Below are positions 5,232-32,109 of a DNA stretch of 64,000 bases, in pieces. Under the pieces are notes generated by a model. The model did no database searches. It was not told where the DNA came from and saw nothing but the letters and a program-made list of their open reading frames with translations. The stretch comes from Chitinophaga pinensis (GTDB lineage: Bacteria; Bacteroidota; Bacteroidia; UBA7662; JAIXUI01): positions 2,502-66,501 of the forward strand of contig CALSBM010000007.1 of the NCBI GenBank assembly GCA_943373175.1, read 5' to 3'. The position numbers and the translations under genes were made by a program. Each line of letters starts with the position of its first letter. The first letter of the stretch is position 1.

Positions 5232-5237
5232 CATCAG

Positions 5238-5321
<84 letters not shown>

Positions 5322-5330
5322 TATCTTCTG

Positions 5331-5412
5331 TACCCAGGGCCGGGCTCGAACCGGCACGACTTGCGTCACAGGTGTTTGAGACCAGCGCGTCTACCAATTC
5401 CGCCACCTGGGC
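5331..5412 (-). tRNA. tRNA-Leu (anticodon CAA), class II
   Basis: The reverse complement has D-arm GCGGAATTGGTAGACGC, anticodon loop CTCAAAC (CAA), variable-arm hairpin GAC-gcaa-GTC and T-arm GCCGG-TTCGAGC-CCGGC. The anticodon stem has one mismatch and the acceptor stem has a G1-U72 wobble. Confidence 0.7.
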
Positions 5413-5467: not shown

Positions 5468-7420
5468 TTGTGGTTCAGTTTCACAAAACCTCTCATGTCT
5501 TCCTTATACTGCCCTAGCCTTACTGATTACAAACGTTTCTCCACTCGCGTGGTACAAATTGGCGATGTTGCCATGGGAGGGTCAAACCCCATTGTAGTTC
5601 AGTCGATGACTACTACTGATACCATGGACACAGAAGCAACCGTGGCTCAGTCGATACGGTTGATAGAAGCCGGTTGCGAAATCGTTCGTATTACTGCTCC
5701 GAGCCTGAAGGAAGCTGAAAATCTAGCGAACATCAAGCGCGAGCTGAAAAACAGAGGTTACCATGTTCCGCTTGTTGCCGATATCCACTTTACTCCTAAT
5801 GCTGCTGAAGTGGCTGCCAGAATCGTGGAGAAAGTGCGCATCAATCCAGGCAATTTTGTGGATAAGAAGAAGTTCGAACAAATCGATTATACCGAATCGT
5901 CTTACGAAGCTGAACTCGCTCGCATTAGAAAGAAGTTCATCCCTTTGGTGAAAATCTGCAAGGAATACGGCACTGCCATGCGCATCGGCACTAACCACGG
6001 CTCCCTTTCCGATCGAATTATGAGCCGCTATGGCGATACGCCTCTGGGCATGGTTGAATCGGCGATGGAGTTCCTCCGCATAGCACGAGAATTGGACTAT
6101 CATCAAATTGTACTTTCCATGAAGGCCAGTAATCCTCAGGTAATGGTGCAAGCTTACCGAATGCTGGTGAGCACCATGATGCAAAACAACATGGATTATC
6201 CGTTGCACCTTGGCGTTACTGAAGCCGGCGATGGCGAAGATGGCCGCATCAAATCAGCCGTTGGAATCGGAACTTTGTTGGAAGATGGCTTAGGCGATAC
6301 CGTTCGGGTGTCCCTCACCGAAGAACCAGAATTCGAAATTCCGGTAGCCCGGGCTTTAATTGATCGTTACAGCCAGCGTAAAGCTTCAAGACCAATTCCT
6401 GAACTTAGAAACCCTCATGACTTCCTTCATTACTCAAAAAGAGCAACGCATGAAGTCCTCAACTTCGGAGGCAAACATGTTCCTCCTGTGGTTGCTGATT
6501 TAAGTGGAAGAAGTTTAGACTACAACACCCTGAATGAGATCGGCTATCATTATGATGAACCGTCCGATAAATGGCATCTGGCTGATCAAACTGCAGATTA
6601 TGTCTTCACTCGCCAATTACCTGAATTCCGCAACTGGCCAACCACGCTGGGCGTTTTAGTGCCTTTCAAAGAATGGAAGCAGGGAATCGACCGTTGTTAT
6701 CCGGTTTTAACTGCAAGTGAATACCAGTCCGCAACCAACGCGGGAGTTGCGTTTCTACAGATTAGTTTACCAGAACTAACCGAAGAGTTGATTGAAATGA
6801 TTCGCAGCGATAAAAATCTGGTGCTGGTAATTGCTACCGACAACGCACATGCGATGCCCGAAATGCGCCGACTTTATCTGGAACTGCTGCATTATGGACT
6901 AACTAATCCTTCCATTGTTCATCGTACATACCAAGAATTGAATCAGGAACTGACGCAGCTCGCAGCTTCAACCGATGCTGGAGCACTTTTCTTAGACGGA
7001 TTCGGGGAAGGAATTTGGATTGGTAACGAGGATTTACATCCTTTAAACTCGTTCAATAGCCTCGCATTTGGCATTCTTCAAGCTACTCGTCTTAGAATTT
7101 CGAAGACAGAATATATTGCTTGCCCATCTTGCGGAAGAACTCTTTTTGATTTACAGGAAACAACTGCCAAAATCCGCAAAAGAACCAGCCACCTAAAAGG
7201 AGTAAAAATTGGCATTATGGGTTGCATTGTTAACGGTCCCGGCGAAATGGCCGATGCCGATTATGGCTATGTGGGCTCCGGTCAAGGAAAAATTACCCTA
7301 TACAAAGGCAAGGAAATAGTTAAACGAAACATTCCATCGTCAGGAGCAGTTGATGCTCTGGTTGAATTAATCCGCCATCATGGAGATTGGATTGAGCCTA
7401 CAGCTAACCCTTTCGGTTAA
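5468..7420 (+). CDS. ispG: 4-hydroxy-3-methylbut-2-enyl diphosphate synthase IspG (long Bacteroidota-type form with insert domain)
   Basis: VVQIGDVAMGGSNPIVVQSMTTTDT motif is characteristic of IspG. The C-terminal Cys cluster CPSCGRT...GCIVNGPGE is also present. The true start may be the Met at 5495. Confidence 0.9.
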   Translation: MWFSFTKPLMSSLYCPSLTDYKRFSTRVVQIGDVAMGGSNPIVVQSMTTTDTMDTEATVAQSIRLIEAGCEIVRITAPSLKEAENLANIKRELKNRGYHVPLVADIHFTPNAAEVAARIVEKVRINPGNFVDKKKFEQIDYTESSYEAELARIRKKFIPLVKICKEYGTAMRIGTNHGSLSDRIMSRYGDTPLGMVESAMEFLRIARELDYHQIVLSMKASNPQVMVQAYRMLVSTMMQNNMDYPLHLGVTEAGDGEDGRIKSAVGIGTLLEDGLGDTVRVSLTEEPEFEIPVARALIDRYSQRKASRPIPELRNPHDFLHYSKRATHEVLNFGGKHVPPVVADLSGRSLDYNTLNEIGYHYDEPSDKWHLADQTADYVFTRQLPEFRNWPTTLGVLVPFKEWKQGIDRCYPVLTASEYQSATNAGVAFLQISLPELTEELIEMIRSDKNLVLVIATDNAHAMPEMRRLYLELLHYGLTNPSIVHRTYQELNQELTQLAASTDAGALFLDGFGEGIWIGNEDLHPLNSFNSLAFGILQATRLRISKTEYIACPSCGRTLFDLQETTAKIRKRTSHLKGVKIGIMGCIVNGPGEMADADYGYVGSGQGKITLYKGKEIVKRNIPSSGAVDALVELIRHHGDWIEPTANPFG

Positions 7421-7458
7421 GAGGCTACCTATTCAGGCTTTCTAACTTTTTCATTGAA

Positions 7459-8763
7459 TTGAAAAAATTGGTCAATACGCTACTGATTCAAATCTCGAAC
7501 GATGAGGTTGTGCTCTCTCCTACCTTAATTATTCCAATAACTGAAACCAATTTCCCATACCAATACTGTAACCTTAGTAATTATAAAAAAATATTCTGGG
7601 AAGTAGAATTAACTGGATATTCAGAAGACACAAGTTGTTTGAAATTAAAAGTATTGAACTATAATGCCATTTTTGATGATAGATTAAAGAAGCAAAGACC
7701 AACGAGAAAAATTGAAAAACTTGAATTCGAAAAATTTGACTGGAGAAGTCTTGAAGCACTTTTAACCTCCTATAAAGCAGCGCAGTTAGATTCCTTCGTA
7801 GAAAAAAATCCAATAGCCTTCAACCATAGAACAGCATCTGGAAGTCATGTTGAATTTATAGAACCCCTTTCTCCAAAAAAAACTGAAAGCACTTCTTCCA
7901 CTCCTTCAAATGAAATAATAGAAATTTCTAAACAATGGAGAATAAAATTTGAGGATGCTTTTTTCGAATTGGGGTATATCCGATTTATAAAAGAATTTCC
8001 AGAGATAAAAAAAGCAGTTATAATAAAAATATTCAACGATAATTTATTGCCTGAATTCGAATTGATAAAACCGTGGTTTATAAAGAAGTTAGGCAAGACT
8101 TTTCAAGTTGAAATAAAAGCAAAAATTAATTCTGAACAACTCATTGATTACGATGCGACTTCCTCAATAATTAGCGCTATCAATCCTAATTTATTGGAAA
8201 ATATTCGTCAACAACGGATATGGGGGTTACAAAAAACACCTAATAAAACCGAAATTGACCAATCGCTATTCACTTCCGATGAAATATTTGAACATGCGAT
8301 TGATAAGGGTGGCAATTTGTTTCAACAAAATGAATTAGAAGTGCTAGAAATCCTATCACAATTAAATTCAGTCCGGAATAAAAGGCAATTAACCTATTTG
8401 GCGAGTCAGCTTCAAAATAATCATTCCAAACTTAGATTCACTTTAAATCCACATTTTGGATTTGTCTTTCACGTTATTGGAAAAACTCAACACCATTTCA
8501 TTTGGGAGCTTTTAAATAGTCATGCCACTTATGTGTGGAGCAGACCCAAAAATGAAATATCAGAAATAAATTTGTTTAAAGAATTAGAAGCAATCATCAA
8601 TTATATCCGATTAGAAGGAAGAGATACCTATAAAAGTGCTTACAGACAGTTCAAGAGAGACGAAAACTGGATTTTTAATTCCATTGATCACGAAGATGCA
8701 AACTCATCATTTAAAGATGGTTTTGTAAAATGGAAATATAAACTGGAAGAAAAACTGGTTTAA
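7459..8763 (+). CDS. hypothetical protein (low-GC orphan gene, no recognisable family)
   Basis: Uninterrupted 434-aa ORF at roughly 32-35% GC, against about 45% for its neighbours. The product is K/E/N/I-rich with no signal peptide or TM segment, and no motif I can assign. Confidence 0.5.
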   Translation: MKKLVNTLLIQISNDEVVLSPTLIIPITETNFPYQYCNLSNYKKIFWEVELTGYSEDTSCLKLKVLNYNAIFDDRLKKQRPTRKIEKLEFEKFDWRSLEALLTSYKAAQLDSFVEKNPIAFNHRTASGSHVEFIEPLSPKKTESTSSTPSNEIIEISKQWRIKFEDAFFELGYIRFIKEFPEIKKAVIIKIFNDNLLPEFELIKPWFIKKLGKTFQVEIKAKINSEQLIDYDATSSIISAINPNLLENIRQQRIWGLQKTPNKTEIDQSLFTSDEIFEHAIDKGGNLFQQNELEVLEILSQLNSVRNKRQLTYLASQLQNNHSKLRFTLNPHFGFVFHVIGKTQHHFIWELLNSHATYVWSRPKNEISEINLFKELEAIINYIRLEGRDTYKSAYRQFKRDENWIFNSIDHEDANSSFKDGFVKWKYKLEEKLV

Positions 8764-8799
8764 TGTTCTTCTTGTAGAAAAAGGTTAAACCCTTCTACC

Positions 8800-9183
8800 C
8801 TAATTAAACTTATTCTGTTTGAATTCTATTCCTGAAAATAAATACAGCATGATGATTCTACTGAAACGGAGAGAAAATGGAGAGAACAGTATCAACGCTG
8901 AAATAACAATAGCTAAATAGACCCAAACATCCGGGTCGTGAAGCAAAAAAAAGGTTCCGAAACCAAAAATGATACTTATTGCTACGCTGAAAGCATAGCT
9001 AACATACATAGCTCCCCAAAACAACCCAGGTTCAACTTCGTAATGCTGTCCACATACTGGACAATCAGAATTCATAATATGTCGCTTTGAAAACTGACTC
9101 ATAGGATAAGCATACACCTTGCCTTGCCTGCAACGAGGACAACGCCCTTCCGCGAGTGCACGAAAGTAACTAACAGTAGCCAA
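8800..9183 (-). CDS. DUF983-like membrane protein (CxxC...CxxC zinc-ribbon plus two TM helices)
   Basis: N-terminal CPRCRQG...CPVCGQ zinc ribbon followed by two hydrophobic helices. This family is commonly found at the distal end of caa3 oxidase clusters. Confidence 0.6.
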   Translation of the reverse strand: MATVSYFRALAEGRCPRCRQGKVYAYPMSQFSKRHIMNSDCPVCGQHYEVEPGLFWGAMYVSYAFSVAISIIFGFGTFFLLHDPDVWVYLAIVISALILFSPFSLRFSRIIMLYLFSGIEFKQNKFN

Positions 9184-29548: not shown

Positions 29549-29911
29549 TTATTTAAAATTATCTATTATTCTAGATTTGTCTTCATTTTCTTTATCGTTC
29601 TTATGATACAATTCAATGAATGTAATTTTTTGTTCGTCAGGAAAGTACGCATAAATTAATCTTAGACCTGAATTTACTCCTCTTCCTTTTAATGCCTTAC
29701 AAGCAATTTTTTTAACCTTAATGACACACGTTTCTAAACCCAAATTATCAATACGGAAACTAAAAGGAGGACTTTCACCAGGTTCGTCATTCAGGTCTAA
29801 CTTCACCACTTCCAAATCATCGTTGAGCGTTCTGTATTTTTTTAAAAGGTTCTTCAAATCCTTTTTAAATGTTGAAAGTTCATAAAATTCAATATTGTTC
29901 ATCATCTTCAT
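29549..29911 (-). CDS. RelE/ParE-superfamily type II toxin-like protein
   Basis: 120-aa protein. The core IKVKKIACKALKGRGVNSGLRLIYAYFPDEQKITFIELYHKNDK follows the RelE/ParE pattern: basic beta-strand, G(K/R)(R)G..R, hydrophobic Y.K, then a basic C-terminal region. It overlaps the upstream antitoxin-like gene by 23 bp. Confidence 0.55.
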   Translation of the reverse strand: MKMMNNIEFYELSTFKKDLKNLLKKYRTLNDDLEVVKLDLNDEPGESPPFSFRIDNLGLETCVIKVKKIACKALKGRGVNSGLRLIYAYFPDEQKITFIELYHKNDKENEDKSRIIDNFK

Positions 29912-30689
29912 AAACTCTAATTGAATAAGGTGGTCTTCTGTAAAAAGCCAATTCGTAATTTATTTCTTCACCTTCTTTTGATGCCTTCCAAGGTTTATCA
30001 CCGTGCGAATAGTTGCTGAGCATAGCCGCACTCCAATCACTCATTTGTTCCATAACCCTGTCAATAATATCTTTCTCGCTTGCCTTTAACTCAGTTAAAT
30101 CAGCTTTCTCTAAAGGCAAATAACGAGTTTGAGGATAACCATGATATTCGGTTTTTACTCTTTGCAACTGCCCTATTTCAATCATTTGACCAATAATCAT
30201 ATCAAAATTTTGCGGAACTGGCCCATAAGGTAATTTGCGATATGTAGCACCTGTTAAATGCTCCTCATACAATTCGTAATAATTAAAATCCGAAAAATAC
30301 AGTAACTTATATAGAACCGTTTCACCGACATTAGGCTTACCTGCACAGCGTTCAAGGATATACAATAAGACATTTTTGAACTTGCCGATTTGTAGAGTAG
30401 GCACAGAAATACGTTCTTCCACTTTCTTGGCCTTATTTTCTTCTTTGCCTTCAACCTCTTGATTTGCCGAGAAATTCTTAGACATAAAATCATCCAATGA
30501 AAATTTCAAAATCATAGCCAGTTTTTGCAGTTCAAGAATATCGACGCTTCTATTTCCTAACTCTATTTGAGCCAAAGACGGTCGGGAAATTTTGACACTT
30601 TTAGCCAAATCTTCTTGCGACAACCCCTTCATTTTACGAAGTTCGGTTAGCCTCTGACCTATTTGCTTTTGCGACAATTGCATGTTCAT
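29889..30689 (-). CDS. HTH-XRE DNA-binding protein fused to a DUF4065 (Panacea/SocA-like) antitoxin-type domain
   Basis: N-terminus QKQIGQRLTELRKMKGLSQEDLAKSVKISRPSLAQIELGNRSVDILELQKLA is a Cro/C1-type HTH. The C-terminal half, LYKLLYFSDFNYYELYEEHLTGATYRKLPYGPVPQNFD, matches the conserved core of DUF4065. Confidence 0.65.
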   Translation of the reverse strand: MNMQLSQKQIGQRLTELRKMKGLSQEDLAKSVKISRPSLAQIELGNRSVDILELQKLAMILKFSLDDFMSKNFSANQEVEGKEENKAKKVEERISVPTLQIGKFKNVLLYILERCAGKPNVGETVLYKLLYFSDFNYYELYEEHLTGATYRKLPYGPVPQNFDMIIGQMIEIGQLQRVKTEYHGYPQTRYLPLEKADLTELKASEKDIIDRVMEQMSDWSAAMLSNYSHGDKPWKASKEGEEINYELAFYRRPPYSIRVYEDDEQY

Positions 30690-31197
30690 ATCAATTTAAG
30701 TTTCGCTGTTCAACGGAACAAAGATAAGCAATGTTTCAAATTCAAACATACTTCTGTTTCCATACAAAACACTGCCTACACTTGCCAAATGCAATTGAAC
30801 TCAAAGAAAAACTGTTTAAAACCCTTTCTACCGGAAGAAACAAACAAAACATCCAACATACAGCCCGGCAAAAATGGACTCAACAAATGACACAAGCAGC
30901 CTCCGTAGTAAATGATTGCAACCGACGACAGGCAAGAACACCAACCGCCAACATACCACCGAAAATCTAAAAAGCCTCAAAAGACCCTTAGACTTCTTGG
31001 AGAGGATATAAAAAAGTTGATTATTTTGGAGACAGAAACAGGTAAAGAAGAAACACTACCCCAAAATGTGGTTTTCAACCTTAGTACTCACCTCCCATGA
31101 AAGCAAACTACACGCAGTGCGTGAAATCGACTACAGGAGCATGTATCGCGCAAGACTGCGTATATTAATCGTTATGTGCAATTTATAATCCAGACAA

Positions 31198-32109
31198 ATG
31201 AGCGGAGTTGTACAACCAGACTTCAGACAAGGAAATAGGTCTGAATATTTAGCGCAATATCTTCTTTCTTACTTGGGGACAACCGTTTTTGTTCCAAGAC
31301 AAGAAGACGTTGGCATCGACTTTAATTGTGCAATTTCTGTCGCTAGCGGACACGTTGAAGAAATCAAAGAACAATTTCATGTTCAAATAAAATCTAATAT
31401 CACGGACGATATAGAATTTGGTGAGGTTGCAAAGACAGGTAAAAATCAAAAGACCAAATGGAAACAATATGAACTTGAATGGCTCTTTAATCTAGACAAT
31501 CCTCTTTTCATTGGCATTGTAAATAAAGACGAAGGTAGCCTTGAGCTTTATTCAACCTCTTTCATGTGGTATAATTACTGGAACAGAAAATTCTTAACGG
31601 TCAAATTTCTTCCAAATCATCCTAGCGGTGACATGGCAGAAATACACGTTCAAGAAGACATCGATATTTCTGAATGGGCTAGTGACTTAGAAACTACGGA
31701 GCCCAAAGTGAAAACAGTTGTACCAATGGGACCACCTATTATTAAACTGACAAAAGAAAATATAAGACAATCGGAAGTACTGCCAACTCTTAAAAACCTA
31801 TTCAGACTTGCAATACAAATAGAACAAGCTAATATCACTTATAAAAAACTTAGACTGCCCTATTTTAACTGGCTTCATAAGATCTCGACAAATAGCAGTT
31901 TCGTTGGTGGTTTTTTTTACGCAATCGATAAAGTGCTAATTGAAGAACAACGACTATATCAATCTTTAACTCCATTACTAATTTCGCTTGCACTTCTTTA
32001 TAAGCAGACCAACGACCAAAGATTCGAGATTATTATGAACGCACTCAACTTAACTCCTCCGCAGTTCATTCCTCCTGAAGTTAAAGTAGCTCTTGGACTT
32101 CCTGCTTGA
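31198..32109 (+). CDS. hypothetical protein with N-terminal PD-(D/E)xK (DUF4365-like restriction-endonuclease fold) motif
   Basis: 303-aa protein. The N-terminus NRSEYLAQYLLSYLGTTVFVPRQEDVGIDFNCAI...EEIKEQFHVQIKS contains E...D-x-GID...Q-x-K, the typical DUF4365 / PD-(D/E)xK arrangement. The C-terminal roughly 180 aa are unassigned. The gene lies at low GC and is transcribed divergently from the TA pair. Confidence 0.5.
   Translation: MSGVVQPDFRQGNRSEYLAQYLLSYLGTTVFVPRQEDVGIDFNCAISVASGHVEEIKEQFHVQIKSNITDDIEFGEVAKTGKNQKTKWKQYELEWLFNLDNPLFIGIVNKDEGSLELYSTSFMWYNYWNRKFLTVKFLPNHPSGDMAEIHVQEDIDISEWASDLETTEPKVKTVVPMGPPIIKLTKENIRQSEVLPTLKNLFRLAIQIEQANITYKKLRLPYFNWLHKISTNSSFVGGFFYAIDKVLIEEQRLYQSLTPLLISLALLYKQTNDQRFEIIMNALNLTPPQFIPPEVKVALGLPA

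Follow-up and report, generated by a model that had tools for sequence, protein, structure and literature searches.

A long-resident and probably dispensable gene between ispG and DUF983 represents an unannotated Bacteroidota family often found near known anti-phage systems

Introduction

At the level of gene organization, the closest described counterparts of the gene analyzed here are the single-gene anti-phage and abortive-infection (Abi) determinants, represented by the lactococcal Abi proteins and by PD-T4, PD-T7 and PD-Lambda in PADLOC. The gene is an open reading frame (ORF) of 434 codons located between ispG and a DUF983 gene in a stretch of 64,000 nucleotides from Chitinophaga pinensis (Bacteroidota; GenBank assembly GCA_943373175.1, contig CALSBM010000007.1, positions 2,502 to 66,501), which we call the window and whose own numbering is used throughout. 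Like those determinants, the family represented by this ORF consists of a single, predicted cytoplasmic protein without a conserved partner; it also resembles them in its patchy accessory spread, its low GC content relative to the host, its rapidly evolving protein sequence, its presence/absence polymorphism and its frequent closeness to known defence systems. It differs from them in that neither the window protein nor 88 relatives consistently match any of the 5027 PADLOC models (PADLOC-DB 2.0.0), that no nuclease, NTPase, SIR2, TIR, HEPN or protease effector domain is recognisable, and that searches of IMG/VR viral contigs, GenBank phages and PLSDB plasmids detected no member of the family. 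We file it as a candidate defence-island-associated single gene and not as a categorically new kind of system.

Three other proteins deserve comparison. HEPN RNases carry an Rx4-6H motif, and R326 and H332 of the window protein are spaced as Rx5H. This RFTLNPH element, pointed out in the original prediction from the window sequence, is indeed present but not conserved: position 332 is His in 18 and position 326 is Arg in 58 of the 88 members. Moreover, AlphaFold2 (AF2) predicts a beta-strand and a loop for this segment, whereas HEPN is all-alpha; there is no Pfam HEPN match, and the PADLOC matches to CARF-HEPN are weak, isolated, single-member ones (E 2e-4 and 7e-3). The HEPN idea was rejected on the conservation of R326 and H332. 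PprA, a DNA-end-binding repair protein of Deinococcus radiodurans (6bdu, 6mc6, 9or6, 9yl4), is the top Foldseek match for the C-terminal domain of the family, and its chains rank just below kinesin matches in the full-length search; both PprA and the family are alpha+beta and lack classical enzyme motifs. However, the match is non-significant (best E 0.054, probability 0.41, TM-score (TM) 0.19, root-mean-square deviation about 16 Å) and comes with no sequence similarity, which makes it a lead only. Finally, two of the 88 members give weak PADLOC matches (best E 0.0028) to Hachiman HamA (DUF1837), a PD-(D/E)xK nuclease with which the C-terminal domain shares a beta-meander followed by helices. 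Yet the window protein is unmatched, an E value of about 0.003 is near chance when 88 proteins are scanned, the family invariants E350, T357, Y358, R388, Y391 and H411 form no D...(D/E)xK pattern, and the adjacent HamB helicase is absent from the family loci.

The ORF and its family

The gene is recorded as follows.

7459–8763, plus strand: protein-coding ORF, 434 aa plus stop, TTG start; unannotated Bacteroidota family with members of about 420–450 aa

The ORF call is intact, with 434 codons and no internal stop. Its TTG start is backed by the closest orthologue, which has ATG at the equivalent codon (MKPLVKTLLIQISN...) and aligns from residue 1, and by P0260, an identical 434-aa product called in an independent assembly. 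An NCBI-derived call (P0001) has 417 aa and starts at the GTG codon for V18, 17 codons downstream of the TTG at 7459; because both the homologues and the independent call back the TTG, this public annotation is probably 17 codons too short (window 7459–7512). As originally described, the ORF is strikingly poor in GC: its GC content of 0.317 is the lowest of 52 genes in the window (z = -4.0; mean of the other 51 ORFs of at least 150 aa 0.429, sd 0.028), and so is its GC at third codon positions (GC3, 0.274). When the deficit is split according to the window's own codon usage, about -0.066 comes from amino-acid content and about -0.048 from codon choice, with a codon-choice residual of z = -2.7. 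The product is hydrophilic, again in agreement with the original description (grand average of hydropathy -0.45; enriched in L/I/K/E/S/N/F), has no transmembrane segment (highest 19-aa hydropathy 1.21) and is predicted to be soluble and cytoplasmic.

The designation of the gene as an orphan did not survive database searches. A word-indexed search retrieved 205 relatives among 90% clusters, nearly all of which cover 98–100% of the query and have 420–455 aa, and an exhaustive search of 1.84 billion cluster representatives (50% identity) yielded 538 matches at E <= 1e-3 and 199 at E <= 1e-30. The peptide pattern WELL[ND][ST][HN]AT matched 139 times in 185,579 species genomes; 134 of these are true relatives, each the single copy of its genome, and these 134 species are a lower bound for the spread of the family. 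Members are almost wholly confined to Bacteroidota and are chromosomal, single-copy and stand-alone. Named carriers belong to Saprospiraceae, Lewinellaceae, Chitinophagaceae, Cyclobacteriaceae, Marinoscillum, Sphingobacteriaceae, Flavobacteriales, Bacteroidales and Lentimicrobium. Because single carrier species occur inside large genera (one Pedobacter, one Algoriphagus and one metagenome-assembled genome (MAG) of Flavobacterium), the distribution shows a rare, patchy accessory gene. Family members also lie on contigs labelled 'Burkholderiales' (L031, CAZUIT010000001.1; local GC about 0.42) and 'Chlorobi' (L041, CAMZKL010000011.1); of the two labels, 'Burkholderiales' seems to stem from an error of binning or taxonomy.

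The nearest relative of a member belongs to the same order in 47 out of 62 cases and to another order in 15, for example between Flavobacterium and Cyclobacteriaceae (62% identity) or between Aquiflexum and Daejeonella (56%). The gene is kept across species in Phaeodactylibacter, Marinoscillum and Chitinophagaceae. This history fits vertical descent with much loss and occasional transfer. In 79% of the family loci the GC content of the gene is below that of its flanks (median difference -0.03, extreme -0.18).

In every source, relatives are named 'hypothetical protein', and literature and accession searches found no paper that mentions the family accessions. The window protein has no significant match in Pfam, NCBIfam, PHROGs or PADLOC, the last of which, proposed originally as a check, returned 0 families. 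Among the 88 aligned relatives, no Pfam family is matched by more than three members (best E 0.0035) and no PADLOC family by more than two; neither these relatives (Pfam, PADLOC) nor the window protein (all four libraries) show consistent similarity to nucleases, integrases or transposases. PDB sequences searched with the protein, the full profile and the C-terminal domain profile gave nothing. Shorter members were considered as alternative architectures and rejected as fragments or a probable chimera. The latter, P0244 (261 aa), has the C-terminal domain of the family behind about 95 N-terminal residues that resemble a signal peptide, and is probably a chimeric assembly or gene call.

Residence and loss at the ispG/DUF983 junction

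The ORF is enclosed by the following features.

5468–7420, plus strand: ispG (GcpE), upstream flank, anchor for the synteny and rate comparisons
7421–7458, no strand: spacer of 38 nt from the ispG stop to the ORF start, no predicted terminator
8764–8799, no strand: spacer of 36 nt from the ORF stop to the stop of the convergent DUF983 gene
8800–9183, minus strand: DUF983 gene, downstream flank, first of the convergent DUF983/DUF420/SCO1/cox cluster

The flanks were identified by Pfam calls on an orthologous locus whose proteins are 77–94% identical to those of the window. The gene order is IspG/GcpE, ORF, DUF983, DUF420, SCO1, COX4, COX3, CtaB, CtaA, COX1 and COX2-cytochrome c (Pfam: GcpE, DUF983, DUF420, SCO1-SenC, COX4_pro, COX3 twice, UbiA, COX15-CtaA, COX1, COX2 with cytochrome-c domains), which confirms the flank annotation of the original prediction.

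In the relatives L006–L008 and L009, the ORF lies in exactly the same ispG/DUF983 slot. Its product is 58–59% identical to that of the window, and the flanks are 77–94% identical. Between the window and L006, nonsynonymous divergence (dN) is 0.345 for the ORF versus 0.144 for ispG, and synonymous divergence (dS) is saturated in both; the ORF protein evolves about 2.4 times faster than ispG, under purifying selection. Given that the ORF has a dN/dS of 0.12 and ispG one of 0.04, a roughly threefold difference, the 58% identity of the orthologues is compatible with vertical co-descent under weaker constraint. In L006, too, the orthologue has a low GC content (0.353 vs 0.42), which is therefore a long-maintained property of the gene and not a sign of an unameliorated import. 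The ORF already occupied the ispG/DUF983 junction when the lineage of the window split from its nearest sampled relatives.

The lineage branches deeply and few of its relatives have been sampled: below the 100% matches, the IspG proteins of the full collection that come closest to that of the window share 82–83% identity (two relatives), and the next ones at most 66%. Relatives at or below 66% have other genes downstream of ispG, with cox/DUF983 not adjacent, so the synteny is clade-specific; the conserved synteny assumed in the original prediction holds inside the immediate clade and is lost in all of these more distant relatives. An IspG-anchored metagenome scan for empty sites was uninformative, the synteny being gone at IspG identities of 65% or less. 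The nearest outgroup, L169 (11582–13923; GCA_017303895.1), has an IspG of 65% identity and carries UbiA/CtaB, two COX3 and COX4 about 3.6 kb downstream of ispG in opposite orientation, with a type IX secretion system (T9SS)-tail protein and a TonB-dependent receptor between ispG and the cox genes. The ispG-cox neighbourhood is loosely ancient but rearranged.

A search of the protein collection did reveal one empty site, on the Logan SRR33963973 contig L171, where the order is MFS, radical-SAM, ispG, DUF983, DUF420, SCO1 and COX4 and the ORF is absent. Here the whole interval between ispG and DUF983 is a spacer of 82 nt (L171:5603–5684), essentially a bidirectional intrinsic terminator with a perfect hairpin, AAAAAAGCCCTGCTTT-loop-AAAGCAGGGCTTTTTT (-23.3 kcal/mol, z = -3.95), and contains no ORF remnant. 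The ORF-bearing loci lack a terminator-like site between ispG and DUF983. None is predicted in 7200–9000 of the window either, and because the spacer at 7421–7458 has no predicted terminator, co-transcription of the ORF with ispG is possible. In L009 (3195–4505; D1_MAG_00013, JAIXUI010000138.1), an in-frame stop interrupts the ORF at codon 194, which corresponds to the conserved F192 of the window protein; the allele may be a pseudogene, or the stop may be an assembly error. With a clean empty site in one relative and a nonsense allele in another, the ORF is very probably a dispensable accessory gene.

IspG identities give the clade tree window versus (L171, (L006, L009)). On this tree, two gains at one site would be a less parsimonious history than a single loss in L171 or the recombinational replacement of the ORF by an empty allele, although the ancestral state is not polarisable because the outgroups lack the ispG/DUF983 synteny.

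These results bear directly on the explanation offered in the original prediction, a recent horizontal insertion of a foreign single-gene abortive-infection determinant. The lowest GC and GC3 of the window, the position of the ORF alone between convergent housekeeping genes, the empty site in L171 and the cross-order nearest relatives elsewhere in the family are what such an insertion would leave behind. However, the gene sits in the same slot in relatives whose flanks have 82% amino-acid identity and saturated dS, its orthologues have diverged as expected for vertical co-divergence under a constraint about three times weaker than that of ispG, and the low GC recurs in L006. Furthermore, the borders of the ORF have no meaningful flanking repeats, integrase or mobile-element signature, and no Abi family is matched. 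We regard a recent insertion as highly improbable. What stands of the claim is that the gene is compositionally deviant, stand-alone, dispensable and patchily distributed, with 15 of 62 nearest relatives across orders; what falls is its recency. Orthologues at this position in most relatives, which the original prediction had named as evidence against itself, are found in part: the ORF is present in L006–L009 and absent from L171, so that three out of four sampled clade lineages carry it.

Allele exchange between close relatives

The flanks of L006 and L009 are near-identical (dS 0.11 for ispG and 0.05 for DUF983), and the ORF has a dS of 0.66 and a dN/dS of 0.12, the latter a mark of purifying selection on the ORF between these alleles. 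A divergence profile of L006:1–3884 with L009:1122–5005 locates the difference. The two loci show no divergence between the 3' end of ispG and nt 32 of the ORF, differ by about 19% at L006 2106–3099 (codons ~11–342, covering the N-terminal domain, the linker, the middle domain and the start of the C-terminal domain), and again show none in the final 285 nt of the ORF and the sequence that follows. This mosaic block of about 1 kb, sharply bounded inside the ORF, has the form expected of recombination with a divergent allele: ORF alleles were very probably exchanged between close relatives by homologous recombination. The profile, in which ispG has short divergent patches as well, suggests that homologous recombination is frequent in the L006/L009 population.

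Genomic neighbourhoods across the family

A context survey covered 80 non-redundant family loci and the genes within ±5 positions. No neighbour is conserved; the best cluster, response regulators, occurs at ten loci in scattered positions. Tightly linked or 4-nt-overlapping neighbours are all different and mostly housekeeping genes (adenine deaminase, KdsB-type cytidylyltransferase, SpoU methylase, GyrI-like, met-zincin, glycoside hydrolase). The recurrent neighbour families include no integrase or transposase, and the family loci contain no conserved operon partner or small antitoxin.

Known defence genes are nevertheless frequent next to the family. Neighbours were scanned with PADLOC models at E <= 1e-5, the counting unit being models and not proteins. 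At ±1 (142 proteins), 142 models were matched, including PD-Lambda-2_A twice, pAgo/SIR2 twice, E1-E2 twice, a type IIG restriction-modification enzyme, ZorD/DpdE-like and BrxL-like proteins. At ±2 (140 proteins), 148 models were matched, including Pycsar cyclase twice at 1e-142, AbiEii twice, PD-Lambda-2_B twice and mad2 three times. The control, neighbours of IspG at 80 Bacteroidota metagenome loci after the same processing, matched 15 models at ±1 and six at ±2. The totals are 290 for the family versus 21 for the control, as model counts against a single housekeeping anchor. A locus of Aquiflexum lacus (L001:3157–11328; JABFHF010000003.1) illustrates the pattern: the family member lies in a defence-island-like stretch, with MZB (DUF1998), a UvrD-type helicase and a small MIT_C/BrxL-like protein upstream, and a HigB-like toxin and a helix-turn-helix (HTH) gene downstream. 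Relative to the IspG control, known anti-phage systems appear to be enriched in the neighbourhoods of the family, which has no conserved gene partner across the phylum. To this extent the neighbourhoods agree with the abortive-infection or defence type assigned in the original prediction, but no known Abi or defence family is consistently matched.

The same survey speaks to another explanation, namely a selfish or addictive element, i.e. a stand-alone toxin-like or homing-type gene spread by recombination without benefit to the host. Such an element could account for a gene that stands by itself between short spacers in numerous unrelated intergenic settings, replaces a terminator-containing spacer where present, exchanges alleles by recombination and is patchily distributed. 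It accords poorly with a single copy per genome, with the lack of nuclease, integrase or transposase similarity, with the absence of flanking repeats and with the absence from phages and plasmids. There is also no partner antitoxin gene, and the spacers of 38 and 36 nt leave no room for one at the window locus; nor is there a target-site or orientation preference, since orientation is random (23 out of 70 loci are convergent, about chance level). A selfish element is improbable on this evidence.

Protein anatomy and predicted structure

An alignment of 88 sequences served as input for the AF2 model and for the conservation analysis. The model is confident (mean predicted local distance difference test (pLDDT) 90.3, predicted TM-score (pTM) 0.67) and divides the protein into three domains and a linker.

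7459–7794, plus strand: predicted N-terminal beta-rich domain, residues 1–112; pLDDT mostly 94–98, mean pairwise identity 0.29
7795–7914, plus strand: predicted disordered, poorly conserved linker, residues 113–152; mean pairwise identity 0.10
7915–8238, plus strand: predicted middle alpha+beta domain, residues 153–260; basic, isoelectric point (pI) 9.2, mean pairwise identity 0.30
8239–8760, plus strand: predicted C-terminal alpha+beta domain, residues 261–434; most conserved part, mean pairwise identity 0.40
8434–8547, plus strand: signature motif RFTLxPxFGFLFxxEGxxxxHFxWELLNSHATYIWS, residues 326–363; three predicted antiparallel strands

The predicted strands of the N-terminal domain span residues 7–12, 16–18, 24–26, 37–39, 45–55, 60–70, 87–90 and 102–105. 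In the linker, pLDDT drops below 50 at residues 120–139 and 143–146. The middle domain is predicted to consist of strands (E) and helices (H) in the order E153–163, E168–170, E173–180, E185–192, H198–211, E214–224, E227–234 and H243–256. Twelve residues are invariant in the 88 sequences, eleven of them in the C-terminal domain (G334, F337, E350, A356, T357, Y358, W360, R388, Y391, H411, W425); the twelfth is I241. The full signature of the family reads RFTLxPxFGFLF..EG....HFxWELLNSHATYIWS ... GRxxYK ... FxxIxH ... FxxWK.

This degree of conservation also settles whether the ORF might be non-functional, that is, an ORF that arose by chance, or a pseudogene in decay, in an AT-rich spacer. The in-frame stop of the L009 orthologue and the low GC3 could be taken in that sense, but 538 full-length family representatives, twelve invariant positions across 88 sequences, a pLDDT of 90 and a dN/dS of 0.12 stand against it. 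Conservation and purifying selection refute this explanation, whose likelihood is practically nil, and the ORF is almost certainly a real, functional gene.

The C-terminal domain modelled alone reaches a pTM of 0.81. Despite confident models, the structure prediction originally recommended led to no known defence fold. Foldseek searches gave nothing with E < 0.01 or TMq > 0.28: the full model has no neighbour in PDB (best E 0.098, TM about 0.1) or in BFVD, and the C-terminal domain model has none in PDB (best E 0.054, the PprA match with TM 0.19; best TMq 0.28). A comparison with hhalign detected no internal domain duplication. As judged from these predicted models, the family appears to have no recognisable fold and no detectable solved relative.

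Several candidate activities of the C-terminal domain were considered and rejected. A 2H-phosphoesterase HxT motif (H355-A-T357) fails because position 355 is Asn in 13 of 88 members and a second HxT motif is absent. The residue pattern does not fit GIY-YIG, and the strands contain neither a conserved Asp nor a conserved (D/E)xK, which speaks against a PD-(D/E)xK reading.

Other features of the window

Two tandem tRNA-Leu genes (anticodons CAG and CAA; minus strand, 5237–5412) lie between a radical-SAM/HemN-like gene and ispG; they are the only RNA features near the locus. The second lowest-GC patch of the window is found at 29549–32109 (about 0.34–0.37) and contains three ORFs.

29549–29911, minus strand: 120-aa ORF of RelE/ParE-like appearance, overlapping the next
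29889–30689, minus strand: 266-aa ORF with an N-terminal XRE-type HTH and a long C-terminal domain
31198–32109, plus strand: 303-aa unknown ORF, next in the same low-GC patch

From its gene content, this patch looks like a toxin-antitoxin or defence islet.

Functional interpretation

We assign a probability of about 0.4 to a role of the family in defence or conflict with phages or other mobile DNA. According to this model, a single polypeptide would confer immunity or exclusion. Recognition would fall to the variable N-terminal and middle domains, which the block swapped between alleles covers, and the effector would be the conserved C-terminal domain, which carries the invariant E350, T357, Y358, R388, Y391 and H411, together with H355 (His or Asn), and may be catalytic. 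That the C-terminal domain is enzymatic is in itself unlikely. The most far-reaching version, a new single-polypeptide immune system of Bacteroidota with one or more folds lacking a solved relative, whose N-terminal and middle domains recognise the invader and whose E/T/Y/R/Y/H set in the C-terminal domain provides a new effector chemistry, is doubtful, if somewhat less so.

A number of observations weigh against a defence role. Because searches of Pfam, NCBIfam, PHROGs, PADLOC, PDB and BFVD found no known defence protein or enzyme with homology to the protein or with a similar fold, the division into sensor and effector is purely what we infer. The commonest Pfam families among the ±1 neighbours are ordinary and mostly housekeeping. 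Counted in proteins, the defence excess is by our estimate only about 3–4-fold, less than the model counts indicate because true defence proteins match many redundant models, and the IspG control is a single, partly syntenic housekeeping anchor that is less diverse than the family set. Any accessory gene in variable regions would share part of the defence association. With 47 of 62 best matches in the same order and several genera that keep the gene, turnover is slower than that of many defence genes. The mosaicism, too, has a wider setting: ispG itself contains patches of 6–11% divergence between L006 and L009 (L006 601–800, 1001–1100 and 1701–1900) on a background of 0–3%, so recombination is not specific to the ORF, and the mosaic might conceivably stem from chimerism of the MAG or Logan assembly.

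The principal competing explanation is an accessory protein outside defence, namely a lineage-restricted cytoplasmic factor with a nucleic-acid-binding, DNA-damage, stress or regulatory function, niche-specific and often lost, which would occur in variable regions merely because it is dispensable. Several results agree with it: the neighbours are mostly housekeeping genes, some of which share a 4-nt overlap with the ORF, as genes of long-established operons do; the gene has been kept by different species of the genera and family named above and mostly finds its best match in the same order; it is under purifying selection and absent from the phage, viral-contig and plasmid collections searched; its middle domain is basic; and its top-ranked structural matches, although non-significant, are to the DNA repair protein PprA. 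Less easily reconciled with it are the PADLOC excess among neighbours, replicated at ±1 and ±2, a GC content persistently below that of the host, and the co-occurrence of presence/absence polymorphism, a nonsense allele and allelic mosaicism inside one small clade; the PprA similarity, moreover, is far below significance. We consider this explanation a serious possibility that falls short of even odds.

Conclusions

The picture of the window locus is corrected by this analysis: the ORF is a long-resident, very probably dispensable gene and not a fresh insertion. It belongs to a family of several hundred sequence clusters without annotation in any library tested, in a phylum that is under-represented in experimental defence-system discovery. 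The family combines population-genetic hallmarks of a conflict gene: it is polymorphic for presence and absence, has a nonsense allele, swaps alleles within the gene and often lies near defence systems. As a single gene of 1.3 kb it is a cheaply testable candidate, yet it is one of many uncharacterised families with such a profile. If the product is a defence protein, it would represent a new effector or sensor architecture; if it is not, the family would still merit its own Pfam entry as a sizeable domain family without a name.

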